Shown: positions 7,200 to 39,523, counted from the stretch's first letter. The stretch is DNA of 39,698 bases from an uncultured Saprospiraceae bacterium (GCA_964564885.1 CAZMEH010000109.1:1-39698), one strand, 5' to 3'. Notes: generated by a model not told the origin, from the sequence alone. Translations and numbers: made by a program.

Positions 7200-7222
7200 T
7201 TTACGATTTACGATTTTAGAAT
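7200..7222. repeat. 23-nt word TTTACGATTTACGATTTTAGAAT (copy 1)
   Basis: Identical 23-mer at 33491-33513. Both copies are intergenic. Confidence 0.9.
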
Positions 7223-7269
7223 GACGATTGCAATTGTTTTGCACAAGCATTTTACAATAATAAAACTTG

Positions 7270-7285
7270 TCCCGATTTCTCGGGA
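7270..7285. repeat. TCCCGA-N4-TCGGGA hairpin module
   Basis: TCCCGA TTTC TCGGGA, between the GGR-family stop (7194) and the UbiA-family start (7305). Confidence 0.9.
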
Positions 7286-7304
7286 TCTAAAATTGTCAAT
7301 CAAA

Positions 7305-8243
7305 ATGATATTTCAATGGTATAAGTTTCTTAGAATGACCAATATTTTAATTATGGTAATCACCTTTTACCTCATTAGAATATTGGTTGTTGTGCCTTAT
7401 GCTAATGCGTTTGATATAGCATTAACATTTGACGATTGGCATTTTATTGTTTTAATAATCGTTACAATGCTTTCTGCAAGTGCGGGCAATATTGTCAATG
7501 ATATTTATGACGTTGAAATAGATCAAGTCAACAAGCCAAAAAAGGTATTTATCAATCGAATTGTATCGAAAAAGAATGCTTGGCGATTGTATTTCGTATT
7601 GAATGGAATAGCAATGGCGCTCATATTTTGGGTTTATTTTCAAATTGATTGGTTCTTGATTTGGATGTATCCATTTGGTTTTTTCTTGACTTGGAGTATG
7701 CTATGGCTTTATTCTTATCGCTACAAAAAATCTGTTTTAATTGGAAATATCATCGTTGGTATTTTTGTATCATTTGTCCCATGGAGCGTTTGCTATCCTG
7801 AATTAGTCAATGCCTTAATTGGCACAATTCCTTATCAATCCTTTTTTGTGTCAACGGGTATTATCTATATTTTATTTGCATTTATTTCTACGATTCTACG
7901 AGAGATAATAAAAGATATAGAAGACAAAGAAGGCGATGCTCAATTTGGTGGAAAGACTTTACCAATTGTTTATGGTGTCGTTAAAGCGAAACGAATGGCA
8001 CAAGGTGTTGGCGTACTTTTATTAGGAATGATGTCTTTTTCTGTGTACTTTTTATTAACAGAAAAACTATATCTAAGTGGGTTCTATGGGATATTGACCG
8101 TTATTGCACCAACTATTTATTTATTAGTTAGTTTAGAAAAAGCATCCGAAAAGAAAACATTTCATCAACTTAGTCAAATTGCAAAGCTGGTGATGATGGC
8201 AGGATTGTTTTTTTTAATCGTTCTGTATTTTGAGTATTATTAG
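7305..8243 (+). CDS. UbiA-family prenyltransferase, DGGGPS-like (geranylgeranylglycerol-phosphate geranylgeranyltransferase-like)
   Basis: Polytopic ORF with first Asp-rich motif 'NIVNDIYDVEIDQVNKP' and second motif 'KDIEDKEGDAQFGGKTLP'. The ORF-track start 7221 reads through intergenic repeat modules (7200-7285), so Met29 (7305) is preferred. Confidence 0.82.
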   Translation: MIFQWYKFLRMTNILIMVITFYLIRILVVVPYANAFDIALTFDDWHFIVLIIVTMLSASAGNIVNDIYDVEIDQVNKPKKVFINRIVSKKNAWRLYFVLNGIAMALIFWVYFQIDWFLIWMYPFGFFLTWSMLWLYSYRYKKSVLIGNIIVGIFVSFVPWSVCYPELVNALIGTIPYQSFFVSTGIIYILFAFISTILREIIKDIEDKEGDAQFGGKTLPIVYGVVKAKRMAQGVGVLLLGMMSFSVYFLLTEKLYLSGFYGILTVIAPTIYLLVSLEKASEKKTFHQLSQIAKLVMMAGLFFLIVLYFEYY

Positions 8244-8300
8244 ATGAAGAAGCGAGAGCAGAGAACTCCCGAAGCCTCGGGATGAGAGAAGAGAGAAAGA
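8244..8300 (+). repeat. Purine-arm / hairpin / purine-arm element (copy 1)
   Basis: GAAGAAGCGAGAGCAGAGAAC-[TCCCGAAGCCTCGGGA]-TGAGAGAAGAGAGAAAGA. The 14-mer TGAGAGAAGAGAGA recurs inverted at 18232-18245. Confidence 0.85.
8267..8282. repeat. TCCCGA-N4-TCGGGA hairpin module
   Basis: TCCCGA AGCC TCGGGA, embedded between purine-rich arms (8244-8300). Confidence 0.9.
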
Positions 8301-8325
8301 ATTGCCTTATCTAACAAATAAAAAA

Positions 8326-8352
8326 AGCGTAAGATGTTAAACATCTTACGCT
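8326..8352. terminator. Bidirectional Rho-independent terminator
   Basis: AGCGTAAGATGTT/AACATCTTACGCT stem flanked by an A-run (8319-8325) and T-run (8353-8356). It sits between the convergent UbiA-like gene and the 461-aa gene. Confidence 0.8.
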
Positions 8353-8381
8353 TTTCTAATCTTAATACTGTTTCCCAAAAA

Positions 8382-9767
8382 TTACTTTTCTTCCTCAGTA
8401 CTAGGTGCTTCTGGCGTTTCCGCAGGAGTTTCTTCAACTACTTCTACTTCAACTACTGCTGGAGTTTCAGCGATAGCTTCAACAACAGGAGCTTCAACTA
8501 CTTCTGCAACAGGTTCAGCTACTTTAGGAGTTTCCTCCACAACAGGAACTTCAACAGCAGGAGTTTCAACAATAGGAGCCGCTTCAACCGCTTCAACTAC
8601 AACAACAGGTTCAGCTGCTTTCGCTGCTGCTACTTTTGCATCTGCTTCCGCTTTCGCTGCTGCCTTTTCAGCTGCTACTTTTTGTTTAGCTTCATCTTCC
8701 GCCTGACGTCTTTCCGCTTTAGCTTTAGCCTGTTCCATCTTATCTTCTAGCTCGACTTTCGTCTTAAGCATTTCCGCTAACTTCGCATTTTTAGAATCGA
8801 TTCTTTCTTGAATCATTTTCAATTTTGCTTGACGGATTTGCGTTTCTAGTTGACCAGTATGGACAGAATTAATTTTTTTATGTTGGAATGACAAGTCTTC
8901 TTCATCACGTTTGATAGACGTTGTCATTTTATGAATTGCATTCATTAGTCCATCGTAACGACGAGAAAGTCGATCCGTAGGATTATTATTACTATTTGCA
9001 GCCGCACCAAAGCGTTTTTCTTTTACAACCTTGAATGCTTTGTCAATACGTTTCCAAATCTCATTACGAGAATCACGAGTTAACTTCGCTGTTTTGAAAT
9101 CATTTTGCATTCTTTTCAGCTCATCAAAAGCCGATTGCAAATTGATATTCTTTTCAATACGAGCTTCTAAATCTTCTAAATGACCCGCAAAACGATCGTA
9201 GCTAGCTTGAGACGCAACTTTGAATTCAGCATCAAGCGCAGCACGAAATTCTTTCAATTTCGCAAACAACGTATTTGTACGTTCTTTGAGCTGAGTAGCG
9301 TGATCCCTGAATAGGTTACGTTCTTGCATTTGCTCACGAACCTTTGCCCAGAAATTCTTTAAATCTTCCCACGCTTTGTGATCATAAGCTGTTAGCTTAT
9401 TGATGTGCGTAGAAAAATCATCTAACTCATTGATGTAAGATTGATTCAATTTAGAAGATAGCACCATGAAGTGCCATTCTGTTTGCGCACGCTGCAAGAT
9501 ATCTTGTTTATCAACGGTAATACCTTCTGGAACTAACGAACCAGAAACGGTCAAATCAGATTCAGTAGGAACACTTCCTTCTGGGAAAATAAAGACTTCT
9601 TTGTCTTCACGCCACTCAAAAAGTAGTTGATTGCCTAATTCTTCAGTAGCTGCTTCACCTGAGAATACCCAAGTTTTGACTTTGTTTTCGTCTGGTAAAA
9701 GCTGTAAAGCGATTAACGATTTATTTTCGTCACTATCTTTGCCCCAGAGTACAATTTTGGTTTTCAT
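8382..9767 (-). CDS. Hypothetical coiled-coil protein with acidic Val/Glu/Ala/Pro-rich C-terminal tail
   Basis: 461-aa ORF. The central helical region has blocks tentatively DUF349-like ('EIWKRIDKAFKVVKEKRF'). The last ~110 aa are low-complexity (AEAKAA..., VEAP/VETP repeats). Confidence 0.75.
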   Translation of the reverse strand: MKTKIVLWGKDSDENKSLIALQLLPDENKVKTWVFSGEAATEELGNQLLFEWREDKEVFIFPEGSVPTESDLTVSGSLVPEGITVDKQDILQRAQTEWHFMVLSSKLNQSYINELDDFSTHINKLTAYDHKAWEDLKNFWAKVREQMQERNLFRDHATQLKERTNTLFAKLKEFRAALDAEFKVASQASYDRFAGHLEDLEARIEKNINLQSAFDELKRMQNDFKTAKLTRDSRNEIWKRIDKAFKVVKEKRFGAAANSNNNPTDRLSRRYDGLMNAIHKMTTSIKRDEEDLSFQHKKINSVHTGQLETQIRQAKLKMIQERIDSKNAKLAEMLKTKVELEDKMEQAKAKAERRQAEDEAKQKVAAEKAAAKAEADAKVAAAKAAEPVVVVEAVEAAPIVETPAVEVPVVEETPKVAEPVAEVVEAPVVEAIAETPAVVEVEVVEETPAETPEAPSTEEEK

Positions 9768-10023
9768 AACAAACGCTGTGTATATTAAAAATCATTGTTC
9801 CGTTGTGATAAACAATTTTATCACCTCCTATATAAAGTAAAATATCGACCAAATGTTCTTTAAAAACAGGTAATTTCTTTCTATTTAGAAATTTATTACT
9901 CATTTCTCTATATTTAATAGATATATAAACCCTTATCAAAGTTACATTTTTCTGATAAATAAAAGAGAAAAGCCGTGTTTTATTGTTTAGGAACGTGCAA
10001 AGAATAAGTTCTACAAATACAAA

Positions 10024-10065
10024 AAGAACAATCGAACAGCAAGTTTCCGCTGTTCAATTGTTCTT
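10024..10065 (-). terminator. Rho-independent terminator after the E2 gene
   Basis: 17-bp stem (AAGAACAATCGAACAGC / GCTGTTCAATTGTTCTT, one mismatch) flanked by A and T runs. Confidence 0.8.
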
Positions 10066-10121
10066 TTCTAGTAATTCTATCAATACTTAATTAGAGATTT
10101 TTTATAATCTAAAGTCGCTCA

Positions 10122-11444
10122 TTAAATATCTCTTTTCATATCCCATGCTTCCATGTAGTCAGCGATTCGACGCAAAAATGATCCACCTAAGAAACCATCA
10201 ACTACTCTATGATCATAAGACAATGATAAGAACATCATTTGACGAATGGCAATCACATCACCGTATTCTGTTTCAACAACGGCTGGCTTCTTACGAATTG
10301 CACCAACTGCTAAAATCGCAACTTGCGGCTGATTGATAATTGGCGTTCCCATTACGTTTCCAAATGTTCCAACATTCGTTACCGTAAATGTTCCACCTTG
10401 TACTTCGTCAGGCTTCAATTTGTTGCTTCTCGCTCTATTTGCCAAGTCGTTAACAGATTTTGCTAAACCTGCAAGATTTTTATAATCCGCATTACGAATA
10501 ACAGGAACAATCAAATTTCCAGATGGTAAAGCAGCTGCCATACCTATGTTAATATCGTTTTTCTTGACGATTTGCGTTCCATCAATCGAAACATTCACCA
10601 TCGGGTAATCTCTCAATGCTTTGACAACACATTCTATAAAGATTGGCGTGAAAGTGATTTTTTCACCATAACGCTCTTGAAATTTACTTTTATTCGCCTT
10701 TCTCCAATTAAATAAGTTCGTCACATCTGCTTCAACAAATGAAGTAACGTGTGGAGAAACCTGTTTTGACATCACCATATGATCAGCGATCAAACGACGC
10801 ATTCTGTCCATTTCGATGATTTCAACATTGCCACTTCTATCAACGGGCGGTGCAGTCATTTTTGGCGCAGCTGCTTTTGGTGCTGCTGTTTTAGCTGGTT
10901 TCGCTACCGTTTTTTGTTTAGGAACTACTACAGCAGGCTCAGGCTTCGTATTTCGATTAGAAACGTATGCCAAAATATCTTTCTTGGTTACTCTTCCGTT
11001 TGAACCTGTTCCACTAACGTTAGCCAATTCTTGCTGAGAAATGCCTTCTGTCTTAGCAATATTTCTAACCAAAGGAGAATAAAAACGATCGTCTCCGTCA
11101 AATGCTAAATCAACGACTTCTTCAACAGTTGTCTGCTCAGTAACACCGTTTGTTGCAGCAGCTATATTTTCAGTTGCTGTTTCAACAGTTGTTTCTTCAC
11201 CATTGGCAGAACTAATAATAGCAATCACTTTTCCAACTTCTACTACATCACCTTCGGCAAAAAAGATTTCTTTAATAACGCCTTCGACTGGAGATGGCAC
11301 TTCGGAATCAACTTTATCCGTCGCAATTTCCAAGATAGTTTCGTCTTCTTCGACTGTATCACCAACTTGCTTATTCCAAGTAAGAATGGTCGCTTCTATG
11401 ATACTTTCGCCCATTTTAGGCATGACTAATTCAACGGTTGTCAT
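10122..11444 (-). CDS. 2-oxoacid dehydrogenase E2 component (dihydrolipoyllysine-residue acyltransferase)
   Basis: Lipoyl domain 'EIATDKVDSEVPSP', a peripheral subunit-binding domain 'SPLVRNIAKTEGISQQELANVSGTGSNGRVTKKDI' and a catalytic domain with 'SLSYDHRVVDG'. No E1/E3 gene adjacent. Confidence 0.93.
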   Translation of the reverse strand: MTTVELVMPKMGESIIEATILTWNKQVGDTVEEDETILEIATDKVDSEVPSPVEGVIKEIFFAEGDVVEVGKVIAIISSANGEETTVETATENIAAATNGVTEQTTVEEVVDLAFDGDDRFYSPLVRNIAKTEGISQQELANVSGTGSNGRVTKKDILAYVSNRNTKPEPAVVVPKQKTVAKPAKTAAPKAAAPKMTAPPVDRSGNVEIIEMDRMRRLIADHMVMSKQVSPHVTSFVEADVTNLFNWRKANKSKFQERYGEKITFTPIFIECVVKALRDYPMVNVSIDGTQIVKKNDINIGMAAALPSGNLIVPVIRNADYKNLAGLAKSVNDLANRARSNKLKPDEVQGGTFTVTNVGTFGNVMGTPIINQPQVAILAVGAIRKKPAVVETEYGDVIAIRQMMFLSLSYDHRVVDGFLGGSFLRRIADYMEAWDMKRDI

Positions 11445-11475
11445 ATTGCGTTTTACTTTAAAGGTGTGAGGAGCG

Positions 11476-11493
11476 TCCCGATAGTTATCGGGA
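11476..11493. repeat. TCCCGA-N6-TCGGGA hairpin module
   Basis: TCCCGA TAGTTA TCGGGA, followed by GTCAGATGTCAG. It lies 32 nt upstream of the E2 start codon. Confidence 0.9.
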
Positions 11494-11892
11494 GTCAGAT
11501 GTCAGTTTATTTGTGCTAACATCTTGAAACTTCATTTACAATTTTTACAAACTGATCAATTTATAAAAAATGTCTCAAAACCTATATTATTTTTTAATTC
11601 CAAGTTCATTTTTTTTCTTTACAAGAATACTCAACGAACGTAATTTTTTTTAAAAAGAGTGGAAATAATCGTTCCAATCTAGTTTTTAATTTTATAATTC
11701 CTAATTTACTAATGATAAAAGGATTTTATTAAAATTAAATTTTACAAAATGAAAGTAAACCTATTTTAAATTTCAAATCAGAAAAATGCTTTTTAAAAAT
11801 GTTTATCACAAATAAAATACTGTTTTTAGCCATTTATATCCCTTGATAAACCGTTCACTTTCAATGAGTAATGAACAAAAATATACTATTTT

Positions 11893-13134: not shown

Positions 13135-13489
13135 AAGAGATTTGTTTTATTTACTCATATCACGCAGAGTTAGCGTCATCTTTTTTTGAAAATTATTGCA
13201 ATATCGAAAGGATAACAATTTAAAACAAGAATTGTCAATGAATGTCCCTAGAATTTATCATAATTTTAACTATTGCCCAGAGAATCCCAATATACACTAC
13301 TGTTTCATTCGGCCAAGAATCCTACTAATAGCGTAAAAAAAATATTATTGAAGATAAATTTTAATTGTGAAGTTGCCAATTTTAACTTATATTTCAATTT
13401 GAATTTCCGGAATTCAAATCATAAATAGGCAGAAGTTATTCTGCTTAATCGCTTAGTAATGAAATATAAATAACTTATAATCGAAAAGA

Positions 13490-18225: not shown

Positions 18226-18287
18226 TTAAAATCTCTCTTCTCTCAGAGCCGATTAATCGGCACGTTCTCTTTTCTCTCTTCTTTATA
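18226..18287 (-). repeat. Purine-arm / hairpin / purine-arm element (copy 2, inverted)
   Basis: The reverse complement reads AAGAAGAGAGAAAAGAGAAC-GT-[GCCGATTAATCGGC]-TC-TGAGAGAAGAGAGA. The architecture matches 8244-8300 but the hairpin core differs. Confidence 0.85.
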
Positions 18288-18298
18288 AAAATAACAAT

Positions 18299-20032
18299 AT
18301 GCAGTTAAGCGAACAGGAAATCGTCAGAAGGGAAACCTTACAAAAAATCATTGACTTAGGAGTTGAGCCATATCCAGCAGCAAAATTTGATGTTGATTTT
18401 CAATCTACGGAAATCACAACCGCTACGTTTCAGAAGAATTTAAAACAGAAACTAGCAGACATTAAAGGCATTGGAGAAGCAGGCGCAGCAACGGTTTTAA
18501 CTGCATTGTTGAAAAATCGTTTCAAAGGAGCGCAAGCACTTACGGATGAAACAGTCGTTGCTTTAGGCATTGGCGAAACCATCGAATTTGACGAAAGCGT
18601 TGGACGAGAAGCAATGTTGTTTGACGATTATGCTAAAGAAATCAAAGACAGTGCATTAGGCGAATATTCAACAATAAATAGACCTTCTGTAAGTATTGCA
18701 GGTCGATTTATGGGACAACGTGGCCCGTTTGCACAATTGCAAGATGCTAATGGCAGCATTCAATTATACATTAATAAAAAAGAATTAGGTGCTGCAACTG
18801 GTGAAGTTGATAAATATAAAAAATTAGTCAAATTACTTGACATCGGTGATTACATCGGTATTCAAGGGTATTTATTTTCAACAGGAATGGGCGAAGTTTC
18901 TATTCATGTTACGGAACTACGCTTTTTGTCTAAAACGCTTCGACCGTTGCCAGTTGTAAAGCGTGATAAAGAAGGAAAAGTATTCGATGAATTTAAGGAT
19001 CCAGAATTGCGCTATCGTATGCGTTATGTGGATTTGACGGTTAATCCTCAGTATAAAGAGATTTTCATCAAGCGTTCAAAAGTGATTACGTCAATGCGTA
19101 ATTTCTTTGTAGAAAAAGGCTGGATGGAAGTAGAAACACCAATTTTGCAACCGATTCATGGTGGCGCTGCGGCTCGTCCATTTGAAACGTATCACAACAC
19201 GCTTGATATGCCGTTGTATTTGCGTATTGCAAATGAATTGTACTTGAAGCGTTTAATCGTTGCTGGTTTCGATGGTGTATTTGAATTTGCGAAAATGTTC
19301 CGTAACGAAGGAATGGACAGAACGCACAATCCTGAGTTTACGGCAATGGAAATCTATGTAGCTTACAAAGACTACATTTGGATGATGGAAATGGTGGAGA
19401 ACTGTTTGGAACACATTGCAATGTCTGTAAACGGTACAACAAAAGCACCATATGGTGATAATATCGTCGACTTCAAAGGACCTTACCGTCGTTTGACTAT
19501 GTACGATTCTATCAAAGAATATACAGGAATTGATGTTTCTGAAATGGATGAAGAAGGCATGAGAGCAGTTTGTAAACAATTGCATATAAAAATAGATGCT
19601 TCTATGGGTAAAGGTAAATTGGTAGATGAAATCTTTGGCGAAAAAGTCGAAGCTAATCTAATTCAACCAACTTACATTACTGATTATCCTGTTGAAATGT
19701 CACCTTTAGCGAAGAAACACCGAACTAAAGAAGGTTTGGTTGAGCGTTTTGAATTATTCATCAACGGTAAAGAAATCGCTAATGCGTATTCTGAGTTGAA
19801 TGACCCGATTGCTCAACGTAAACGTTTTGAAGACCAGTTGAATCTTGCCGAACGTGGCGATGATGAAGCGATGGTTTTGGATGAAGATTTCTTACGTGCT
19901 TTGGAATATGGAATGCCGCCAACGTCTGGTTTGGGTATCGGAATTGACCGCCTTGTAATGATGTTGACTAATCAACGTTCTATTCAAGAAGTGTTATTTT
20001 TCCCTCAAATGAAGCCTGAAAGTAATGGATAG
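18299..20032 (+). CDS. lysS: Lysine--tRNA ligase (class II) with N-terminal insertion
   Basis: Colinear with class II LysRS: '[10 protein letters not shown]', '[21 protein letters not shown]', '[20 protein letters not shown]', '[14 protein letters not shown]'. There are ~70 extra residues before the OB-fold. Confidence 0.97.
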
Positions 20033-20074: not shown

Positions 20075-20090
20075 TCCCGAGCTTTCGGGA
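20075..20090. repeat. TCCCGA-N4-TCGGGA hairpin module
   Basis: TCCCGA GCTT TCGGGA, directly after a second hairpin CCTGCCTG...CAGGCAGG (20040-20067) downstream of lysS. Confidence 0.9.
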
Positions 20091-20114: not shown

Positions 20115-20147
20115 AAACCTGTTGAGCTATTTGCTTGGCAGGTTTTT
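20115..20147 (+). terminator. Probable terminator downstream of lysS
   Basis: AAACCTG...CAGGTTT stem followed by TTTGTATTTTT. Confidence 0.5.
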
Positions 20148-20188
20148 GTATTTTTAGGAAAGCCTTTTTATAAAATCAATTTTACCTT

Positions 20189-20488: not shown

Positions 20489-20504
20489 TCCCGAGTGCTC
20501 GGGA
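20489..20504. repeat. TCCCGA-N4-TCGGGA hairpin module
   Basis: TCCCGA GTGC TCGGGA, followed by a 16-bp-stem AT-rich hairpin at 20516-20551. Confidence 0.9.
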
Positions 20505-20856
20505 TACTTCAGCTATTTTTATTTTGGTAGCTTTGGCTACTAAAATAAAAATGAGCTTCGTTTTGAAAATCAAGCGTTTATCAATAGTTTTAGCATGAGT
20601 TCTTAAACAAGTTCTGGAAATTAGAGATACCTTAGGCTAATTAGTCTATGATTTTTCTTATTGGCATAGTTTATCTCGTTATAGGAAAATTGAATCCATA
20701 AATACAGATACTTTTAGTCAGATATATCTTTCATATTCTGGAGAGTTTTTAAGTTTCAATCTCTATGTTGATAATGAATATAATTACCTATTAGACATCA
20801 AATTTTTTGGAAAAATTAAAGCAGGTAAATATAAAGGAACTATTCAAGAGGAATTA

Positions 20857-24558: not shown

Positions 24559-24574
24559 TCCCGAGCAATCGGGA
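24559..24574. repeat. TCCCGA-N4-TCGGGA hairpin module
   Basis: TCCCGA GCAA TCGGGA, 30 nt upstream of the ompA-family start, followed by the ACGAAT-word block at 24582-24610. Confidence 0.9.
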
Positions 24575-24931
24575 CAGGTTAAGAATTACGAATGACGAAT
24601 TATGAATGTCTTCTTTATTCGTCATTTAATTCTATCGCTAACTTCCATCATCTACTTTAGTTATTTACTGATTGCGTTTCATCTTGTTTTTATCTATATT
24701 TTTCTAATCAGTAATTACAGGTTTTAAAATTGTAAGGTATAGAGTCTGGGTGCAAAAAGAGAAAACTAAATTCTTGTATAAATGGGTTATTTTATATTTT
24801 GAATTATCTATTTTTATATAACGGTTAAATTTTATATTTATCGTACAAATGTTTGAAAAACCTTGATATTAACGTTTGATAATTAAAAATGAAAAGGGTA
24901 TTATTTGTTTATTTCTGACAGCTGTAGGCAA

Positions 24932-24965
24932 TCTGACAGCGGAGCGATCTGGCTTCTGATTTCTC
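24932..24965. repeat. 34-nt TCTGACAGCG...CTTCTGAYTTCTC repeat (copy 1)
   Basis: 29/34 identical to 32983-33016. It is preceded by another TCTGACAG at 24914-24921. Confidence 0.88.
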
Positions 24966-25047
24966 AAATATATAGCAGTATGAATAATAATATCATCTAA
25001 ATTTCTGGTTCTGCCGAGTCTATTCGTTTGAAAGACTGAATTTTCAC

Positions 25048-26671: not shown

Positions 26672-26719
26672 TAAGGGTCGGACGCCTCATCCCGATAGGG
26701 ATCGGGAGTCCGCCCCTTA
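26672..26719. repeat. Compound hairpin with TCCCGA-N6-TCGGGA core (26690-26707)
   Basis: Outer arms TAAGGGTCGGAC / GTCCGCCCCTTA (one mismatch) enclose TCCCGA TAGGGA TCGGGA. The structure sits between the prfC stop and the MFS start. Confidence 0.9.
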
Positions 26720-30264: not shown

Positions 30265-30316
30265 ATAAATGCAGAAGGTTTGACCGAATAATATATTTCG
30301 GCATTCATTCCGTTTA

Positions 30317-30711: not shown

Positions 30712-30809
30712 TAGTAACTACTACTCAAAGTTTACACGTCAATAAGAGTTAACTTAAGCACAAAAAACGCTACGAATTTAATTTTTATTGAATTAGGAAA
30801 TCATATCAT

Positions 30810-32897: not shown

Positions 32898-32982
32898 AGC
32901 AGTTTAGAATTACGAATGCAAACAGACTGCATTCATAATCTTATGATTTTAAATTATGAATGTCATTTTAAGACATCTGACT

Positions 32983-33016
32983 TCTGACAGCGAAGCGGTC
33001 TCTCTTCTGACTTCTC
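32983..33016. repeat. 34-nt TCTGACAGCG...CTTCTGAYTTCTC repeat (copy 2)
   Basis: 29/34 identical to 24932-24965. It ends 2 nt before the smpB stop codon. Confidence 0.88.
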
Positions 33017-33018
33017 AA

Positions 33019-33480
33019 TTAATAATCCATCTTTTTAGCTCTATCCAACTCACGTTTATTATCACGATCTCTTATGGTTGTTCGCTTGTCATGTTGCTTC
33101 TTACCTTCGGCTAAAGCGATTTCCAACTTTACAAAACCTCTATCTGAAAAATATATTTTATAAGGAATAATGGTCATTCCTTTCTCTTCTTTCTTCTTGA
33201 ATAGCTTCTTAAGTTGTTGTTTTTTCAATAATACTTTTCGTTCTCGAATCGGGTCATGGTTATAATGACCACCATATTTATAAGGTGCGATGTATATATT
33301 TCGTACAAATAACTCCGTACCTCGAAAATAACAATATGCGTCTGCTAAATGTGCATTGTTCAATCGAATGCTTTTAACTTCCGTCCCTTTCAACATCAAA
33401 CCAGCCTCATACATATCTTTAAAATAGTATTCGTGCTTCGCTTTTCTGTTAACTATATGTACTTGTTTTTTAAATTCCAT
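33019..33480 (-). CDS. smpB: SsrA-binding protein
   Basis: 153 aa with 'NRKAKHEYYF...EAGLMLKGTEVKSIR...YIAPY...HDPIRERKLLLKK'-type SmpB signature and a basic C-terminal tail. Confidence 0.97.
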   Translation of the reverse strand: MEFKKQVHIVNRKAKHEYYFKDMYEAGLMLKGTEVKSIRLNNAHLADAYCYFRGTELFVRNIYIAPYKYGGHYNHDPIRERKVLLKKQQLKKLFKKKEEKGMTIIPYKIYFSDRGFVKLEIALAEGKKQHDKRTTIRDRDNKRELDRAKKMDY

Positions 33481-33490
33481 TTGTTGTTGA

Positions 33491-33513
33491 TTTACGATTT
33501 ACGATTTTAGAAT
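33491..33513. repeat. 23-nt word TTTACGATTTACGATTTTAGAAT (copy 2)
   Basis: Identical to 7200-7222, immediately upstream of the smpB start codon. Confidence 0.9.
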
Positions 33514-33633
33514 TATGATTTGTCTATTGAAATTATGTAACCGTAATTCAGAAATTGTAAAATCATTAATATCTTGCTTTATACTGTTGTGCATTTTTAC
33601 ACAAAGAAAAGTCGAGTAATGTTTTTCTGACAG

Positions 33634-33650
33634 TCCCGAGTATTCATGGA
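33634..33650. repeat. Degenerate TCCCGA hairpin module
   Basis: TCCCGA GTAT TCATGGA (right arm decayed), flanked by TCTGACAG words. Confidence 0.7.
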
Positions 33651-33668
33651 CTGTTCTGACAGTGAAAT

Positions 33669-33686
33669 TCCCGATAGCTATCGGGA
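33669..33686. repeat. TCCCGA-N6-TCGGGA hairpin module
   Basis: TCCCGA TAGCTA TCGGGA, flanked by TTCTGACAG and TTCTGAC, just downstream of the permease-DtxR stop. Confidence 0.9.
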
Positions 33687-33698
33687 CTATTCTGACTT

Positions 33699-35186
33699 CT
33701 AAACTAATATAACGTGAACTCGTTTCGCTAAGTTCAAAGGTACAGTAATTTGTTTAGTGTTTTGTTGAACAATCACCTGATTTGCATCGGTATTCGTCAC
33801 CAAAACCTCACTGTTCGGTAACAAACCCAATTGCCAAAGCTTTGCCGTAATATTTTCATTCATTTGTTCTAATGCGATAATAGCCAATTGGTTGACTAAT
33901 ATTTCATCTAAACCAACATCAGGATAACCGAACTTCTTTGGAATGAGCGAACCGTGTGGATCCATTCTCGGATAACCCAATTCGTGGTCAACTTCGTCCA
34001 AGACTTCATCCGTCAAAATATGTTCCAATCGTTCAGCATGTTCATGAATTTCAGCTTCGTTCATACCCGCTTGATTAACCAAATACGTTTCCCAAAGTCG
34101 ATGCGCACGGACTAATTTATTCGCCGCTCGAATACCTTTTTTATTTATTTTAATGGTGTCACCTTTCCATTCTAGCAAACCATTTTGACGCAATTTACTT
34201 AAATACTGTTTGACTTTAGATGCCGAAAACCCTAATCGTTCGACTAAGTTAGGTAAGTTTAAGTTATCTCTCTCCCGCAATTTAAAAGCCTGTTTCAGCG
34301 TGTCTTCCAATTCGACTTTTTTACGAATGCTATTTTTGCGCAAATACTTAAACAGCAAACCTTTCTTTGGTGAAAAGAAAACAGCCAATAAGAAAAACAT
34401 CGTTCCTGTAACCGCCATTGCTGGGCCAGGTGTTGTTTCCAACTTAATGGCAAGTAACAAACCAATAATTGCCGAAAATAAACCAATGAAGGCAGAAAGC
34501 ACCACTACTTTCTGTAATCTATCGCTGAGTAGCAAAGCCGTTGCCGCAGGTGCAATCAACATCGAAACAACCAAAATAACACCAACTGCTTTCAACGAAG
34601 CAACGATTGCAAGCGATAATAACAGCATTAAAAAATAATAAACCGCCCTGACAGGAATGCCAAGCGTTTCCGCAATCACTACTTGAAAAGTCGTTGCAAA
34701 AAGGTAACGATAAAAGATAATCACACTTAAAATGACAAAAAGCGTAATCGCACCAGTCAAATATAAATCCTCATTAGAAACGCCCAAAGCATTTCCAAAC
34801 AAAAAATCTTTCAAGTCTAAATGCACGCCATCTTGTCGGCTAATTCGTGAAATCCACATCACGCCAATTGAAAACATAGCGGTAAACACAATGCCCATCG
34901 CCGCATCATTTTTAATCGGAACATTGCGCTGCAACCAAGTAATCATTATTGCGGTAATAATCCCAGCGAAGACGGCGCCTACAAAAAATCCCATTACGCT
35001 ATAACCTGCAACTACAAAACCAAGCACAACACCAGGCAGCACCGCATGAGAAAGCGCATCGCCAATCAGTGACATATTTCGCAAGACAATAAAAACACCC
35101 AAAATTCCACACATCACGCCAATCATGGAGGAAGCAATCAAGGCTCGTATTGCCCATTCGTATTGTAAAATTTCTAAAATTTCCAT
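33699..35186 (-). CDS. Metal ABC transporter permease (ABC-3/TroCD/ZnuB type) fused to a C-terminal DtxR/MntR-type repressor module plus FeoA/SH3-like domain
   Basis: Residues 1-~280 form a polytopic ABC-3 permease ('GDALSHAVLPGVVLGF'). Residues ~285-495 carry a winged HTH, 'AHRLWETYL', 'HEHAERLEH', 'DPHGSLIP' and a C-terminal FeoA-like segment. Confidence 0.9.
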   Translation of the reverse strand: MEILEILQYEWAIRALIASSMIGVMCGILGVFIVLRNMSLIGDALSHAVLPGVVLGFVVAGYSVMGFFVGAVFAGIITAIMITWLQRNVPIKNDAAMGIVFTAMFSIGVMWISRISRQDGVHLDLKDFLFGNALGVSNEDLYLTGAITLFVILSVIIFYRYLFATTFQVVIAETLGIPVRAVYYFLMLLLSLAIVASLKAVGVILVVSMLIAPAATALLLSDRLQKVVVLSAFIGLFSAIIGLLLAIKLETTPGPAMAVTGTMFFLLAVFFSPKKGLLFKYLRKNSIRKKVELEDTLKQAFKLRERDNLNLPNLVERLGFSASKVKQYLSKLRQNGLLEWKGDTIKINKKGIRAANKLVRAHRLWETYLVNQAGMNEAEIHEHAERLEHILTDEVLDEVDHELGYPRMDPHGSLIPKKFGYPDVGLDEILVNQLAIIALEQMNENITAKLWQLGLLPNSEVLVTNTDANQVIVQQNTKQITVPLNLAKRVHVILV

Positions 35187-35384
35187 TGCTATAATTGTTT
35201 CATTTGACTTTCGTCAAATTGATTGTTATTATTGTTTTGCTCCTCCCGTCGCTGACTATTCGGTCAAGCCTCATGAGAGGAGTTGTTTTATTGCTGTAAT
35301 TGTTCCTCAAGTTAGCGCACTAATACGAGCAACAATTTAGCAATAAAACAATGAGCCGTTAGGCGACAACAATTCAACAACCTT

Positions 35385-36122
35385 CTACACTTCCATCGTT
35401 TTATGAAGAATATTCAATTGACCACCGAACGCTTTTGCGATATTCTCATCAATAAAAGTCGTTTCTGTATCGCCAATAGCGACCAAACGTTGATTGAGTA
35501 GAATAACTTTATCAAAATATTCTCGAACGGTTGATAAGTCGTGATGAATCACTAGAATAGTTTTTCCCTCTTGAGAAAGCTTCTTTAATTGAACAAGAAT
35601 TTTCTCTTCTGTCGTAATATCAATTCCAACAAATGGCTCATCCAATAAGAAAATACTAGCTTCTTGACACAAAGCTCTAGCAATAAAAACACGTTGTTGC
35701 TGACCGCCAGAAAGTTCTCCGATTTGTCGGTCTTTAAGATTTGCAATGCCCATATCTTCCAAAGATTGCATCGCCAAATTCTTATCGTATTGGTTCATTC
35801 GCTCAAAAAAACGCTTGTGCGGATAACGTCCCATGAGCACGACATCGTAAACCGTTGCAGGAAACTGCCAATCCAAATCGCTCTTTTGTGGAACATAAAC
35901 TACTTCTTTCCGCTTGTTTTTAATGACATCGCCATCCACCACAACTTGTCCAGTATTGACTTCAATTAATCCAAGTATTGCTTTGAATAGCGTCGATTTA
36001 CCAGCACCATTTGCACCTAGAACACCGTATATATTGCCTTTTTCGATACTCAAATAGATATTGGTCAACGCCATTTTTCTATCATACGATACCGAAAGAC
36101 CTTTTATTTCTATTGTTTTCAT
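35385..36122 (-). CDS. Metal ABC transporter ATP-binding protein (ZnuC/MntA/TroB type)
   Basis: Walker A 'GANGAGKST', signature 'LSGGQQQRV', Walker B 'IFLLDEP' and an H-loop 'VIHHDL'. Confidence 0.93.
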   Translation of the reverse strand: MKTIEIKGLSVSYDRKMALTNIYLSIEKGNIYGVLGANGAGKSTLFKAILGLIEVNTGQVVVDGDVIKNKRKEVVYVPQKSDLDWQFPATVYDVVLMGRYPHKRFFERMNQYDKNLAMQSLEDMGIANLKDRQIGELSGGQQQRVFIARALCQEASIFLLDEPFVGIDITTEEKILVQLKKLSQEGKTILVIHHDLSTVREYFDKVILLNQRLVAIGDTETTFIDENIAKAFGGQLNILHKTMEV

Positions 36123-36139
36123 TGATGTAGAAAATTAAT

Positions 36140-36189
36140 GTAGCATAGGTAACTTGTCCCGATATTTCGGGACAAGTTACCTGTGCTAC
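36140..36189. repeat. 23-bp-stem hairpin with TCCCGA-TATT-TCGGGA core, intercistronic
   Basis: GTAGCATAGGTAACTTGTCCCGA TATT TCGGGACAAGTTACCTGTGCTAC (one mismatch). It lies between the SBP stop (36194) and the ATPase start (36122). Confidence 0.92.
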
Positions 36190-36193
36190 TATG

Positions 36194-37213
36194 CTACTTT
36201 TTCTTATTAAGTAGCATAGGCAAGAATAATAAAGCCGCACCACCAAAGAGCAAAATAATGATTAGGGTAATGCTAATTGGAGAATAACCGCTTCCGTCTG
36301 TTTCGTCAGAATTGTCTATTTCTTCCAAGTTGACTTTTCCTGTCAAAGCATTGACGATAGTTTCCGTATTCGTTAATAGCATTTTCTCATAAGTACCCGC
36401 TTCGCCGTCTGGGGCGCCCAATGAGTCAGCGTATAATGTACCGCCAATTTTGACTTTCGTATCCTTTGCAATTTGCCGTAACGTCCGTGGATTAATCGTA
36501 CTTTCCACAAAAATGGCAGGAATACCCGTTTCCTTAATGACTCTATATAATCGATTAATATCTTGCGTTTGTGCTTGCGCATCCGTTGAAGTTCCTAAGA
36601 TAGATTCCAACTGCAAACCGTATTTTCTACCATAATACTTAAACGCATCGTGAGAAGTTACTAAAACTCGTTTATCTGCTGGAATGGTTAAAATCAGTTC
36701 TTTCAAACGTATATCCAATGCTTCAATTCTTGTTTTGAATGCTTCAAAATTGCTTTCATAAGTTGCTGTATTTTCTGCGTTTAAAGCAATCAAAGCATTT
36801 TTAATATTCTCTGCATAGATAATTCCATTTGATGCATCCATCCAAGCATGCGGATCTGGCGAATTAGCATATTGATCACTTACAATAGGGTCAACGCCTT
36901 TCGTTGTGTTGATAACAGTTGCTTTTGTACCAGAATTTTCAATAAATTCATTCAACCAACCTTCTAGGGTTAAGCCGTTCATTAATATCAAATTCGCTTT
37001 GACAATTTTAATTGCATCTTGCGGAATCGGCTCGTATAAATGCGGGTCGCCGCCAGTCGGCACTAAGCTTTCTACTTCTACCAAATCACCTGCAATTTGC
37101 ATCGTGATGTCTTTTATAATGGTGGTCGTTACAACTACTTTCGGTTTTTCAGAAGCAAATAAAGCACTGATTAGAAAAGTGTTTATTAATAGTAATAATA
37201 TGTGTTTTCTCAT
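36194..37213 (-). CDS. Metal ABC transporter substrate-binding protein (cluster A-I, ZnuA/MntC/TroA type) with C-terminal transmembrane anchor
   Basis: Signal peptide, then 'GGDPHLYEP', 'PDPHAWMD', 'LVTSHDAFKYYG' and 'LYADSLG' blocks of TroA-like SBPs. An extra tail 'EEIDNSDETDGSGYSPISITLIIILLFGGAALLFLPMLLNKKK' follows. Confidence 0.9.
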   Translation of the reverse strand: MRKHILLLLINTFLISALFASEKPKVVVTTTIIKDITMQIAGDLVEVESLVPTGGDPHLYEPIPQDAIKIVKANLILMNGLTLEGWLNEFIENSGTKATVINTTKGVDPIVSDQYANSPDPHAWMDASNGIIYAENIKNALIALNAENTATYESNFEAFKTRIEALDIRLKELILTIPADKRVLVTSHDAFKYYGRKYGLQLESILGTSTDAQAQTQDINRLYRVIKETGIPAIFVESTINPRTLRQIAKDTKVKIGGTLYADSLGAPDGEAGTYEKMLLTNTETIVNALTGKVNLEEIDNSDETDGSGYSPISITLIIILLFGGAALLFLPMLLNKKK

Positions 37214-37251
37214 GGTATTTTTAATTTATAAAAGGTTCTTTGAAGTAGAGT

Positions 37252-37293
37252 CATTGTCAATTATCCATTGTCAATTATCTATTGTCCATTAAT
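37252..37293. repeat. 14-bp tandem repeat x3 (CATTGTCAATTATC)
   Basis: Two identical units (37252-37265, 37266-37279) plus a third with 4 mismatches. They fill the dtxR-SBP spacer. Confidence 0.9.
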
Positions 37294-37296
37294 TAG

Positions 37297-37947
37297 CTAT
37301 CTTACAAAAAGGTTTTGAGCGACTTTGTTTGAAATAATCTGCTCCTCTCCGCCATCAATTTTAATGCGAATAGAACCATCATATTCTGCAATCTTAATCA
37401 CTTCAATTGCTGTTCCTAGTTTCAATTTTAATAGGTCAAGGTAATTTAGAAACGATTTTGAATGTTCTTGAACGCCAACTATGACCGCTTGACTTCCTTC
37501 AAAATCAGATAAAATGACCTGTTTACGGAAGGTGAAATTTCCATCTTTATCAGGAATAGGATCACCGTGCGGATCAAATTTAGGGAAACCTAAAAACTCA
37601 TCTAAACTGTTGATTAGTTTATCAGAACGAATATGCTCTAACTCTTCTGCCAACGGATGAACTTCATCCCAAGCAAAATTGAGTTTGTCCACTAAAAAGA
37701 CTTCCCAAATTCTATGTTTACGAATAAGATTGGTGGCTACTTTTCGCCCGCTGTCCGTTAACCGAACGCCTTTCCATTTTTCATAAAGCACCAAATCTTT
37801 GTCTGCCAGCCGTTTAATCATGTCAGAAACAGAGGCTGCCGAAGTGCTCATGCTTCCTGCAATAGAATTGGTGCTAACGGGTGCGCCTTCTTTCTCAGAT
37901 ATTTTAAATATTGCTTTTAGATAGTTTTCTTCTGTACTCGAAACCAT
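37297..37947 (-). CDS. DtxR/MntR-family metal-dependent transcriptional regulator with FeoA/SH3-like C-terminal domain
   Basis: 'ENYLKAIFKI' and the HTH 'SIAGSMSTSAASVSDMIKRLADKDLV', then 'KHRIWEVFL', 'LAEELEH', 'DPHGDPIP'. It is the first gene of the metal-uptake operon. Confidence 0.9.
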   Translation of the reverse strand: MVSSTEENYLKAIFKISEKEGAPVSTNSIAGSMSTSAASVSDMIKRLADKDLVLYEKWKGVRLTDSGRKVATNLIRKHRIWEVFLVDKLNFAWDEVHPLAEELEHIRSDKLINSLDEFLGFPKFDPHGDPIPDKDGNFTFRKQVILSDFEGSQAVIVGVQEHSKSFLNYLDLLKLKLGTAIEVIKIAEYDGSIRIKIDGGEEQIISNKVAQNLFVR

Positions 37948-38008
37948 TAGTTCTAGCTTTAAATTTTAAACGCAACTAAAATGAAGATTGTTTATGTAAA
38001 TATAATAT

Positions 38009-38026
38009 TTTTAGATTAATCTAAAA
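38009..38026 (-). promoter_or_regulatory. Perfect 18-bp palindrome, candidate DtxR-family operator
   Basis: TTTTAGATTAATCTAAAA lies 62-79 nt upstream of the dtxR-like start codon. It is AT-rich with TTAG...CTAA half-sites, as in DtxR-type operators. Confidence 0.35.
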
Positions 38027-38046
38027 GTGTTTTTAGGTTTTAAAAA

Positions 38047-38074
38047 AATGAACTTCAATTAATTGAAATTCATT
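38047..38074 (-). terminator. Terminator after the UbiA/MqnP-like gene
   Basis: 28-bp palindrome AATGAACTTCAATT/AATTGAAATTCATT (one mismatch), with a T-run on the minus strand. Confidence 0.65.
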
Positions 38075-38139
38075 TTCTTAACTGATTAGTAGTTTGGTGA
38101 CTTTAGGTCATCAACTTACTATTATACCTAAAATATTTT

Positions 38140-39003
38140 CTAAAAAAATATCAAATCAAGAATCACCAAAATACCAAATACCATACTTGCAATGCCATTT
38201 GTAGTGAAAAAAGCTAAATTGACTTTGCTTAAATCATTTGGCTTAACTAGCAAATGTTGATAAATCAGCAAACTAATAAATATACAAACCGCCACCCAAT
38301 GTAACCAACCGAAACCACCTAGATAAGCCGCAGCCAAAACAACAACCGCAGTCGTAAAGTGTAGTATTTTAGAAAAGTGTAAAGCATTCTTTTTGCCTAG
38401 CCAAGTTGGAATAGAATGTAATTGAAGCGATTTGTCAAAACTTTCATCTTGAAGTGAATAAATGATATCAAAACCAGCGACCCAAAGCAATACAACGACG
38501 GAATACAAAACGGGTATCAAAGCAAATTCAGCTGTAACAGCAATATACGCCCCGATAGGCGCAAGTGCCAAACCTAAGCCCAAAACCAAATGGCATAAAG
38601 CGGTAAAACGCTTGGTATAGCTATATCCTAAGACAACAATCAAGGCGATTGGAGAAAGGAAAAAGCAAAGCGGATTGATGAAATACGTCGTTCCAATGAA
38701 CAATAGAACATTTAGAATAATAAAAAATAAGGCAGATTGTGGTTTGATAACGCCTGCTGGAATCTCACGAGTAATCGTTCGAGGATTTTTTGCGTCAATA
38801 TCTCTATCAACATACCGATTAAATGCCATTGCGGCACTTCTTGCAAAAATCATACAAAGGATAACTAAGCCTAATTTTAATAAAATATCACTAGTGAATT
38901 GCCCATCTTTTGCTAAATAAACGGCTAAAAAAAAGCCAATCATAGCAAAAGGTAAAGCAAAAACGGTGTGGCTAAATTTAATAAGAGATAAGTAGTTTTT
39001 CAT
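38140..39003 (-). CDS. UbiA-family polyprenyltransferase (4-hydroxybenzoate polyprenyltransferase-like / MqnP-like)
   Basis: 287 aa and polytopic, starting 'LIKFSHTVFALPFAMIG', with the Asp-rich motif 'NRYVDRDIDAKNPRT' and a second motif 'YSLQDESFD'. Confidence 0.88.
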   Translation of the reverse strand: MKNYLSLIKFSHTVFALPFAMIGFFLAVYLAKDGQFTSDILLKLGLVILCMIFARSAAMAFNRYVDRDIDAKNPRTITREIPAGVIKPQSALFFIILNVLLFIGTTYFINPLCFFLSPIALIVVLGYSYTKRFTALCHLVLGLGLALAPIGAYIAVTAEFALIPVLYSVVVLLWVAGFDIIYSLQDESFDKSLQLHSIPTWLGKKNALHFSKILHFTTAVVVLAAAYLGGFGWLHWVAVCIFISLLIYQHLLVKPNDLSKVNLAFFTTNGIASMVFGILVILDLIFF

Positions 39004-39063
39004 ATTGAAATTGGTTCAATGCGTTCTTAGTAGCTTGATAGAATAAAGAGCAGAAAGCGTTTT

Positions 39064-39486
39064 TTATTCTAGTTCAATCGTAAACTCTGTATCTTCATTA
39101 ATTGGCGCTTTGTAAACATCTTTTGCGGTTTCCATGATGAACTTAATTAATTGCATCTTAGCATCACCTGCTTCAAAACGAGTACTTTTTGAATAATTAC
39201 CAAAATCAGCTTCGCTCCAACCTAAATCTAATAACTGTTGATTTTGCGCATCGGAAAGTTGCAAATCCTCTGGAAGAAATTGATTACTCACCGCTTCACA
39301 ATAAAGCTCATTATTTCCTTTGCTTCCGGTGAATTGTAAATAATAATCTTCTGTCAAATAAATAATACAAATGTTTTGCTCTCCACCTTCTGTAGTGATT
39401 TCTTCCATTGCATTTATAACGTTATCCATTGATGTTATTTTTTGTTTATGATAATCTAATAAATGGGTCTTTAACAATTTCTGCAT
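39064..39486 (-). CDS. Hypothetical cytoplasmic protein (possibly YbjN/TY-chaperone-like)
   Basis: 140-aa ORF, acidic, alpha/beta pattern. The segment 'LSDAQNQQLLDLGWSEADFGNY' recalls YbjN-like domains, but the assignment is weak. Confidence 0.55.
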   Translation of the reverse strand: MQKLLKTHLLDYHKQKITSMDNVINAMEEITTEGGEQNICIIYLTEDYYLQFTGSKGNNELYCEAVSNQFLPEDLQLSDAQNQQLLDLGWSEADFGNYSKSTRFEAGDAKMQLIKFIMETAKDVYKAPINEDTEFTIELE

Positions 39487-39493
39487 TTTAGTC

Positions 39494-39523
39494 CAATGTT
39501 CCCAATAGCTATCGGGAACATTG
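39494..39523. repeat. Degenerate TCCCGA-type palindrome
   Basis: CAATGTTCCCAATAG / CTATCGGGAACATTG (one mismatch), 8 nt upstream of the start codon at 39486. Confidence 0.8.

Follow-up and report, generated by a model that had tools for sequence, protein, structure and literature searches.

A family of short hairpins recurs along a 39,698-nt stretch of DNA from an uncultured Saprospiraceae bacterium (GCA_964564885.1 CAZMEH010000109.1:1-39698), the whole of which we call the window. Open reading frames (ORFs) were annotated with NCBIfam and Pfam. The gene products include proteins with type IX secretion system (T9SS) sorting domains and a CHU_0125-type OmpA, and the best matches of release factor 3 (RF3, the prfC product) were to Saprospiraceae metagenome-assembled genomes (73-78%); together they assign the window to a marine, Saprospiraceae-like bacterium. 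A pattern search of the entire window for TCCCGA-N(4-6)-TCGGGA returned nine perfect matches, starting at 7270, 8267, 11476, 20075, 20489, 24559, 26690, 33669 and 36157, which recovered every perfect copy listed in a first-pass annotation of this DNA and corresponds to about one copy per 4 kb. That annotation had expected such a palindrome to be very rare by chance, and 100 dinucleotide-preserving shuffles gave a mean of 0.01 matches and a maximum of 1. Contigs nearly identical to the window (99.6-99.98%) are present in TARA and other assemblies, and thus the hairpins are not an assembly artefact.

The hairpins are of two types. Six copies (type A) have the 6-bp stem TCCCGA-N4-TCGGGA with loops TTTC, AGCC, GCTT, GTGC, GCAA and TATT, whereas three perfect copies (type B) have the 7-bp stem TCCCGAT-N4-ATCGGGA with loops AGTT, AGGG and AGCT. 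Because the copies that had appeared to contain a six-nucleotide spacer resolve to TCCCGAT-N4-ATCGGGA, every copy is a tetraloop hairpin, and the core of the element is 16-18 nt. With the exception of AGCT, the loops in the window all differ, and most are non-palindromic. No stem mismatch occurs in nine copies, one occurs in a single copy, two occur in none, and compensatory changes are absent. The mismatched copy (39500-39517, TCCCAATAGCTATCGGGA) is of type B and carries a 6-bp outer stem, CAATGT/ACATTG, the complete element spanning 39494-39523 and lying 13 nt ahead of the start of a TY-Chap3-like gene. This was one of two copies that had been described as decayed. The other, at 33634 (TCCCGAGTATTCATGGAC), is doubtful because only its 5′ arm is retained and its fold is another stem, ACAGTCC/GGACTGT. 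When two or three mismatches were allowed, no additional credible copies were identified in the window. Lone half-sites are present at about the level expected by chance (four TCCCGA and one TCGGGA) without enrichment in coding DNA, indicating that the repeated unit is the hairpin.

All nine perfect copies are in non-coding DNA, which makes up 18% of the window (P ~2e-7). Each copy is 12-47 nt from the closest start or stop codon, even within intergenic regions of 383-545 nt, and randomisation indicated that the copies are nearer to the ends of coding sequences (CDSs) than expected from random placement in intergenic DNA (P 0.0001-0.012 in different tests). A stop codon precedes five copies by 12-42 nt, and six copies are 13-36 nt 5′ of start codons, such that the hairpins occur in 5′ untranslated regions (UTRs), in 3′ UTRs and between cistrons, with neither strand nor position relative to genes being fixed. 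Two ORFs that overlap copies contain false N-terminal extensions (7221 and 24625), as had been suspected: in the OmpA/PorE-like protein a signal peptide (MKNWIITIIILSSFVIEVSAQ) follows an internal Met33, and the family matches of the UbiA-like protein begin near Met29. The claim that every copy lies outside a credible CDS therefore held.

Considering the copies individually, the type A hairpin at 7270-7285 (TCCCGA-TTTC-TCGGGA) is 75 nt past the stop codon of a geranylgeranyl-reductase gene and 19 nt ahead of the probable UbiA-like start at 7305. The copy at 8267-8282 (type A, loop AGCC), which has GA-rich tracts on both sides, is 23 nt past the UbiA-like stop codon, with a real bidirectional terminator (8321-8357) farther downstream. 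At 11476-11493, the type B hairpin TCCCGAT-AGTT-ATCGGGA is followed by GTCAGATGTCAG and precedes the start of an E2 acyltransferase gene by 31 nt. A type A copy at 20075-20090 (loop GCTT) lies 42 nt past the lysS stop codon, with a CCTGCC/GGCAGG hairpin on one side and a T-run hairpin at ~20135-20175 on the other; the latter was called a terminator by eye and is absent from the list produced by our terminator scan. The next copy (20489-20504, type A, loop GTGC), whose identical 16-mer also occurs in metagenome locus L198, is 15 nt past the stop codon of a 94-aa ORF and directly before a terminator-like hairpin at 20514-20553. Finally, the type A copy at 24559-24574 (loop GCAA) is 29 nt ahead of the true OmpA/PorE-like start (Met33, ~24529) and is followed by a GAATKAC array with a period of 7 at 24583-24608.

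The three remaining perfect copies are parts of larger structures. In the nested element at 26673-26718 (-33.3 kcal/mol, z -5.3), situated between prfC and a major facilitator superfamily (MFS) gene, the type B hairpin at 26690-26707 (loop AGGG) lies inside the loop of an outer AAGGGTCGGAC...GTCCGCCCCTT hairpin, and a T-rich stretch follows the composite. A second composite (33626-33698), 12 nt past a permease stop codon, consists of TCTGACAG, the degenerate copy (33634-33651), TTCTGACAG, the perfect 18-nt palindrome TCCCGATAGCTATCGGGA (33669-33686) and TTCTGAC. Its two copies are the sole adjacent ones in the window and do not form an inverted pair. The third structure is a 23-bp hairpin at 36140-36189 (-43.4 kcal/mol, z -12) between substrate-binding protein (SBP) and ATPase cistrons, with a type A core at 36157-36172 (loop TATT). 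Its outer arms, GTAGCATAGG and CCTGTGCTAC, are copies of the neighbouring gene-end sequence TATGCTAC, in inverted and direct orientation. Because a viral scan gave 0 matches to the entire long hairpin (GTAGCAYAGGTAACTTGTCCCGA), this outer stem is local and does not travel with the core. We also observed that GTAGCAYAGG is present four times, in both orientations, around the SBP stop codon (36140-36220), and once more at 1976-1985. As the last residues of the SBP (…PMLLNKKK) are unlike those of the relative L276 described below, the end of this gene seems to have been remodelled by the repeat.

The hairpins nest in or beside other modules, which are the AAGGGTCGGAC hairpin and two kinds of array, one of TCTGACAG and the other of period 7. 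Several companion words had been named along with the hairpins in the first-pass annotation, and these were confirmed in part. TCTGACAG was enriched (6 occurrences compared with 0.75 expected; five lie on one strand in intergenic DNA), and period-7 arrays and two longer intergenic repeats were identified. TCTGACAG(CG) words adjoin two hairpins. Tandem arrays with a period of 7 were found at 7199-7229, 24583-24608, 33489-33521 and 37252-37291. The first reads ATTTACG ATTTACG ATTTTAG AATGACG (+ strand) and is 94% identical to 33490-33520 (+ strand), a second ATTTACG array that is conserved upstream of smpB in L276. Of the longer repeats, the one at 24914-24970 (+ strand) comprises two copies of TCTGACAG and the 39-nt unit TCTGACAGCGGAGCGATCTGGCTTCTGATTTCTCAAATA (24932-24970); this unit is 85% identical to a second TCTGACAGCG unit at 32983-33021 (+ strand), between the gene of a T9SS-sorted protein and smpB. 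In the window, as in other Saprospiraceae (after prfC in L009, L011 and L014), repeats with periods of 7 and 14 directly follow stop codons or precede start codons; they are reminiscent of the heptamers of cyanobacterial short tandemly repeated repetitive (STRR) sequences. A second hairpin repeat, AAGGGTCGGAC-loop-GTCCG(A/C)CCCTT, occupies different loci in the window (26673-26718) and in L276 (5068-5126), which suggests that further mobile hairpin families may exist in this lineage.

Relatives were sought with the permease because 80 loci centred on prfC (1.38 Mb) from named species of Bacteroidota show no synteny with the window; these loci contained one copy of the hairpin, and no recurrent-stem hairpins of their own were found in the prfC-centred Saprospiraceae/Bacteroidota loci. 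The permease gene (33699-35186) encodes a metal ABC-transporter permease fused to a DtxR/MntR-type repressor domain, a fusion conserved in many Saprospiraceae, and a separate DtxR-family gene is present at 37297-37947. Homologues of the fusion protein led to locus L276, in which gene order is the same over 11.7 kb, the permease is 93% identical in amino acid sequence and the genes are 82-90% identical in nucleotide sequence. L276 contains 0 hairpin copies in these 11.7 kb. The copies at 33634, 33669, 36157 and 39500 are all absent, and hence the presence/absence polymorphism to which the first-pass annotation had looked was found at all four copies of the syntenic block. The SBP-ATPase spacer is 12 nt in L276 compared with 71 nt in the window, and the extra sequence (~59 nt) is the entire long hairpin at 36140-36189. 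In the permease-smpB spacer, TCTGAC words and the ATTTACG array are present in both genomes, whereas hairpins between the TCTGAC words are present in the window only. L276 has a AAGGGTCGGAC-loop-GTCCGACCCTT hairpin between its ATPase and permease genes; the counterpart in the window follows prfC and has the TCCCGA hairpin in its loop. Since the copy at 26690 occupies a hairpin loop that occurs empty in L276, the hairpins can nest in other repeats. We considered that the outer stems might always have been pre-existing terminators and rejected this for 36157, as L276 has no hairpin at that position. Three further relatives (L277-L279, 86-91% amino acid identity) contain 0 copies. These comparisons show the family in the window to be a recent, lineage-specific gain, and the hairpins are dispensable for the operons that they decorate.

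More than 180 contigs in public viral and metagenome data carry the 18-mer TCCCGATAGCTATCGGGA, some of them with several hairpin copies each. A scan of IMG/VR for TCCCGATAGNNATCGGGA returned 66 stretches with a GC content of 27-63%, mostly 30-50%; 45 of these are the perfect palindrome TCCCGATAGCTATCGGGA (loop AGCT), when 1 in 16 would be expected. The corresponding scan for TCCCGAGTRCTCGGGA returned 19 stretches, 15 of them perfect palindromes with the loop GTAC. A metagenome scan for the 18-mer gave at least 120 stretches, and record names among the matches listed point to varied environments, including marine TARA samples. No exact match to the 18-mer was returned by BLAST among 50,697 phage records and 72,556 plasmids, and a full-text literature search for the hairpin sequence found no paper that prints the 18-mer. 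In the wider set, stop-free stretches of 120 aa or longer cover 82% of the DNA but contain only 57 of the 220 copies. The flanks of 212 non-redundant copies avoid T at -1 and A at +1 and are enriched in tandem repeats, mostly with a period of 7. Outer stems of at least 7 bp were found in 11% of copies compared with 2% of controls, some being classical terminators (L113, L119, L147). Stem extension was not enriched at the first flanking base if required to be contiguous, and was enriched only when a bulge was allowed. One phage-like contig (L125/L128/L130) carries the hairpin in several intergenic spacers with short mirror-image tandem repeats alongside. Tandem half-sites also occur, CCCGATAG being present three times in L128, with others in L184, L198 and L227.

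The window contains no tRNA genes. Hairpins were found within tRNA sequences elsewhere: removal of the hairpin sequence allows ARAGORN to recognise tRNAs across the resulting junction in L090/L118 (Met), L162 (Gln), L242 (Leu) and L260 (Val). In these otherwise normal-looking tRNAs, which are located in arrays, the hairpin takes the position of the D-arm (L090:4815-4900, L162:~1045-1130 and L260:4900-5650). Six loci (L202, L213, L214, L226, L233 and L161) instead contain a degenerate 5′ tRNA fragment in which the hairpin substitutes for 3-7 nt of the D-arm, replacing the D-loop in five of them and part of the D-stem in L161 (for example L202:~975-1110 and L213:~290-420). These fragments are 50-70 nt upstream of an intact tRNA that lacks the hairpin. 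L213, with the loop AGCT, had suggested that the loop might be a retained target tetranucleotide; this was rejected, as the loop is AGCT in L202, L214, L226 and L233 whatever the original D-loop.

A second RNA context is provided by diversity-generating retroelements (DGRs). In L110, L143, L116 and L142 a stem-loop tipped by the hairpin lies downstream of the template repeat (TR) and ~27-35 nt ahead of a gene for a 316-320-aa reverse transcriptase (RT), and a variant, TCCCGGTATACATCGGGA, is at the equivalent position between the TR and RT in L111 (L110:1-1155, L116:7560-7900, L142:10760-11100, L111:5545-7281, and L143:3480-3800, with the RT at 2579-3526 on the minus strand). The outer stems differ among loci. 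Each of the four loci tested (L111, L116, L142 and L143) contains two variable repeats with 12-16 mismatches almost exclusively at template adenines; the best comparison of template and variable repeats gave 0 mismatches at other bases in three loci and 3 in L143. Retrieval by the exact hairpin sequence biases the apparent conservation of the hairpin at these loci; L111 was sampled free of that bias, and its tip has diverged.

A gene for a candidate mobilising enzyme was found beside the hairpin in another contig. We screened 186 hairpin-seeded loci for HUH and Y motifs and then with NCBIfam, which yielded two ORFs resembling REP-associated tyrosine transposases (RAYTs; REP, repetitive extragenic palindrome), one each in L244 and L184. 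The L244 ORF (3137-3883, minus strand) matched the NCBIfam model of the REP-associated tyrosine transposase with an E value of 2e-14, which is below the curated cut-off. Its product, which Pfam did not recognise, contains the motifs NHFH and YVHQNP and gave a weak match with TnpA-REP of E. coli (4er8). The 18-mer is present on both sides of this gene (at 3014 and 4058, 123 nt and 154 nt from its ends), in repeated units of ~150-200 nt. Homologues of the L244 protein (the P0001 family) carry the JGI label 'REP element-mobilizing transposase RayT' and occur in Draconibacterium, Mariniphaga, Gaoshiqia and Prolixibacteraceae. In seven independent loci seeded with homologues, the gene is in a conserved neighbourhood and always amid GACGCTGACAGGTC or TTGTCAGCGTGCGCAGCTCCTGACAACGTC units. 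These loci are rich in CTGACAGCG-type units, a word also repeated beside hairpins in the window, and the TCTGACAG(CG) words of the window resemble their repeat units. In L282 and L273 the TCCCGA hairpin is inside one of these units, and in L273 the unit occurs both empty (GGGGGAA-GAC-CTGTCAGCG) and filled (GGGGGAA-CCCCGATAGCTATCGGGG-CTGTCAGCG). We also noted that the P0001 RAYT-like genes (L271-L275 and L280-L282, at ~10001-11000 in most) stand between giant HYR/SprB/CHU_C surface-protein (adhesin) genes and are preceded by GACGCTGACAGGTC/TTGTCAGCGTGCGCAGCTCCTGACAACGTC arrays, which in L273 comprise at least 12 units with a period of ~250 nt.

We favour, with a probability of roughly 60%, a model in which the hairpins are REP-like, non-autonomous micro-repeats of 16-18 nt, possibly copied by an HUH tyrosine transposase of the Bacteroidota RAYT type. 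In favour of it, the copies are extragenic and far more numerous than expected by chance, were gained recently, recur in a wide and patchy family, nest in other repeats at sites that also occur empty, and combine conserved stems with variable loops. A RAYT-like gene also has the 18-mer on both sides in L244, and the hairpin is more frequent at RAYT-homologue loci than at control loci (2/7 versus 1/80 by strict criteria, Fisher P 0.016; 4/7 versus 3/80 by relaxed criteria, Fisher P 0.0005). According to this model, new copies would arise from a single-stranded DNA hairpin intermediate through a RAYT-type transposase acting in trans and encoded elsewhere in the genome. The intact stem would be the feature recognised by the transposase, which would explain why the stems are letter-perfect and the loops are free to vary. 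Outer stems may arise in part when a copy lands in the loop of an existing hairpin, as at 26690, and in part by local inverted duplication of the flanks, as at 36140-36189. Once inserted, the hairpins would ride in the 5′ or 3′ UTRs of mRNAs, where they might incidentally block exonucleases or bind protein.

Several observations weigh against this model. The enrichment at RAYT-homologue loci may partly be taxonomic, since these loci are Marinilabiliales-like and the controls are from Saprospiraceae/Flavobacteriia. The hairpins on either side of the gene are of the CTGTCAGCG type, instead of the TCCCGA type, at seven of eight RAYT loci, the RAYT-like ORF of L184 is flanked by an unrelated hairpin, and no RAYT gene is present within the 39.7-kb window. 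Neither the conserved foot of REPs (GT[AG]G or CGTC) nor any other conserved flank was found in the 212 non-redundant copies, the GTAG at 36140 being an inverted copy of the local gene end rather than a foot. The copies in the window are singletons, and REPIN doublets (two inverted REPs with fixed spacing) were not seen. Palindromic loops are strongly over-represented in the public loci (L085-L303), whereas classical REPs are imperfect palindromes. Lastly, the letter-perfect stems, the fixed place in divergent DGRs and the proximity to CDS ends could equally mean selection for an RNA- or protein-binding function. Because the foot and the doublets are absent and the candidate partner RAYT comes from other contigs, we conclude that the hairpins work like a REP and are not a proven member of the REP family. 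The suggestion in the first-pass annotation that these may be RAYT-mobilised elements is thus supported by the link in other contigs, where L244 is flanked on both sides and homologue loci are enriched, and not by a foot, by doublets or by the flanking units, which are mostly of the CTGTCAGCG type.

Comparison with known systems gave a similar picture. As in the REP/REPIN-RAYT systems of E. coli, Pseudomonas and Stenotrophomonas, the hairpins are short, G+C-rich extragenic palindromes that occur at high density in UTRs and between cistrons, vary in presence or absence among related genomes, are nested with other modules and, in the one contig L244, flank a RAYT-like gene on both sides as identical copies. 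They differ in having a core of only 16-18 nt that lacks the foot and the doublets, in master forms that are perfect palindromes, and in a sequence common to distant genomes and phages; classical REP-RAYT pairs, by contrast, pass vertically and are each confined to one lineage. A survey of Y1 transposases (PMC6006769) describes a Bacteroidetes subclass of TnpA-REP (2.6, Bertels group 5) with 'atypical secondary structures' that have no GTAG foot and are found again at other places in the same genome. In its motifs the L244 protein resembles this subclass, YVHQNP fitting YIH[QN]NP and NH-x-H fitting the HUH motif, and neither the TCCCGA...TCGGGA hairpin nor a CTGTCAG hairpin appears in the text of the supplementary REP tables of that paper. 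The first-pass annotation had also likened the hairpins to the bacterial interspersed mosaic elements (BIMEs) of enterobacteria. An extragenic hairpin family nested with other modules is indeed present, and the mosaic intergenic blocks do combine a palindromic unit with other short recurring motifs; however, the copies in the window show no regular alternation of opposite units and no common or defined linker, and their companions are period-7 arrays and independent hairpin families.

Cyanobacterial small dispersed repeats (SDRs) and STRR heptamer arrays provide another precedent. SDRs are reportedly repeats of less than 30 nt that nest in hairpins and heptamer arrays, are polymorphic between relatives and can sit inside structured RNA genes. 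By this definition the hairpins would resemble SDRs in being polymorphic and in their nesting, which is seen within TCTGAC arrays (33626-33698) and within a hairpin loop (26690), and they differ in phylum, in their unrelated sequence, in length (16-18 nt compared with 21-27 nt) and in the candidate link to a transposase. Taken over all contexts, the family is widespread and patchy across environmental genomes, phage contigs, tRNA D-loops and the spacer of one DGR family. A broader proposal, which we hold only tentatively, is that the hairpin is an ultra-small mobile module with perfect-palindrome masters, common to Bacteroidota-type genomes, phages and the DGR family, that prefers the tips of existing hairpins such as terminator-like stems, tRNA D-loops and the DGR spacer. 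It would be a counterpart of SDRs with an undescribed route of mobilisation (an atypical RAYT or other), possibly with a shared protein partner. Features unusual for REPs, namely the letter-perfect stems with freely varying loops, the dominance of perfect palindromes, the replacement of loop bases and the locally built outer stem at 36140-36189, leave room for another copying mechanism or for selection acting on a hairpin that binds protein.

Selection is central to the first alternative to RAYT mobilisation, according to which a conserved protein (an RNA-binding protein, an RNase or an accessory factor of the RT) binds the hairpin as a sequence-specific recognition module in RNA or DNA, with spread being secondary. 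This would account for stems that remain perfect without compensatory changes while loops vary, for distances of 12-47 nt from CDS ends, for the location, in five DGRs with differing outer stems, at the tip of the stem-loop that separates TR and RT, for the copies between genes of one phage-like contig and for the place of the D-arm in array tRNAs. It is nevertheless unlikely in our view, as the hairpins are dispensable (a close syntenic relative has no copies and much shorter spacers), are nearly absent from the 80 other Bacteroidota loci, have no fixed strand or position relative to genes and have no Rfam match; moreover, the conservation in DGRs is subject to the retrieval bias and the L111 tip has diverged.

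We consider it less likely still that the hairpins are SDR-like micro-elements that spread without a RAYT, whether by template switching or gene conversion between hairpin tips as DNA replicates or by an RT-dependent route. Several features fit such a process: copies replace 3-4 nt of a loop, clean insertion with target duplication not being the pattern; the end of the neighbouring gene, copied in inverted and direct orientation, makes up the outer stem at 36140-36189; tandem half-sites occur; perfect palindromes predominate; copies nest in period-7 arrays; and the hairpin is present in DGR RNA beside the RT. However, the sole gene repeatedly linked to the hairpin is RAYT-like, there is no candidate enzyme or intermediate for the alternative, and of 146 loci only 3 have an RT as their longest ORF, all three being RTs of DGRs, which have their own targeting rules.

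The two remaining explanations are both very improbable. Rho-independent terminators or attenuators that share a stem by chance, a role that the first-pass annotation had allowed for, would fit the five copies 12-42 nt after stop codons and the T-rich stretch after the 26690 composite, but only one of nine copies passed a scan for a hairpin plus T-tail, on the strand without a gene end, six copies precede start codons by 13-36 nt, and the stem is common to unrelated genomes, which is unexpected for terminators. Separate T-tailed, terminator-like hairpins lie downstream of three copies, at 8321-8357, 20514-20553 and, as read by eye, ~20135-20175, indicating that transcripts do not end at the hairpins but contain them within UTRs. 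An operator recognised by a single transcription factor, or a pair of DNA-uptake sequences, would likewise be a perfect or near-perfect dyad, and uptake sequences of Neisseria and Haemophilus are often inverted pairs after genes; against operators, which had been named beforehand as the case that would undo a mobile interpretation if found at a fixed distance from promoters, there are two arm spacings, promoter distance varies and many copies follow stop codons or separate cistrons of unrelated genes, against uptake sequences lone half-sites are at chance frequency with no enrichment in coding DNA, and against both L276 has the same operons without the sites. CRISPR and known-RNA-family readings were rejected by direct tests; an Rfam scan of the window at E<=1 gave nothing relevant, the only overlap being a chance match of a miRNA model to 36140-36189.

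Two other features of the window are recorded here. The lysS leader (18230-18298) contains a GCCGATTAATCGGC hairpin between CT-rich tracts, and at 18299-18670 the lysS ORF has ~110-125 N-terminal residues that lie beyond the family models of lysine-tRNA ligase and may be an extension or a miscalled start. A 461-aa ORF at 8382-9767 has internal periodic repeats of 9/15 nt and no match in NCBIfam or Pfam.

These hairpins also affect annotation, by creating false N-terminal extensions (7221 and 24625), apparently remodelled gene ends (36194-36220) and tRNA genes that are hidden from ARAGORN. REP-RAYT systems have been worked out nearly all in Proteobacteria, and the accessible Bacteroidota literature speaks only of 'atypical secondary structures' beside RAYT genes. 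Our findings supply a searchable hairpin sequence, a candidate RAYT clade, and filled and empty sites, which makes mobilisation testable. Should one 18-mer really move among hosts, phages, tRNA genes and the RNAs of retroelements, few known mobile or recruited nucleic-acid modules would be smaller.

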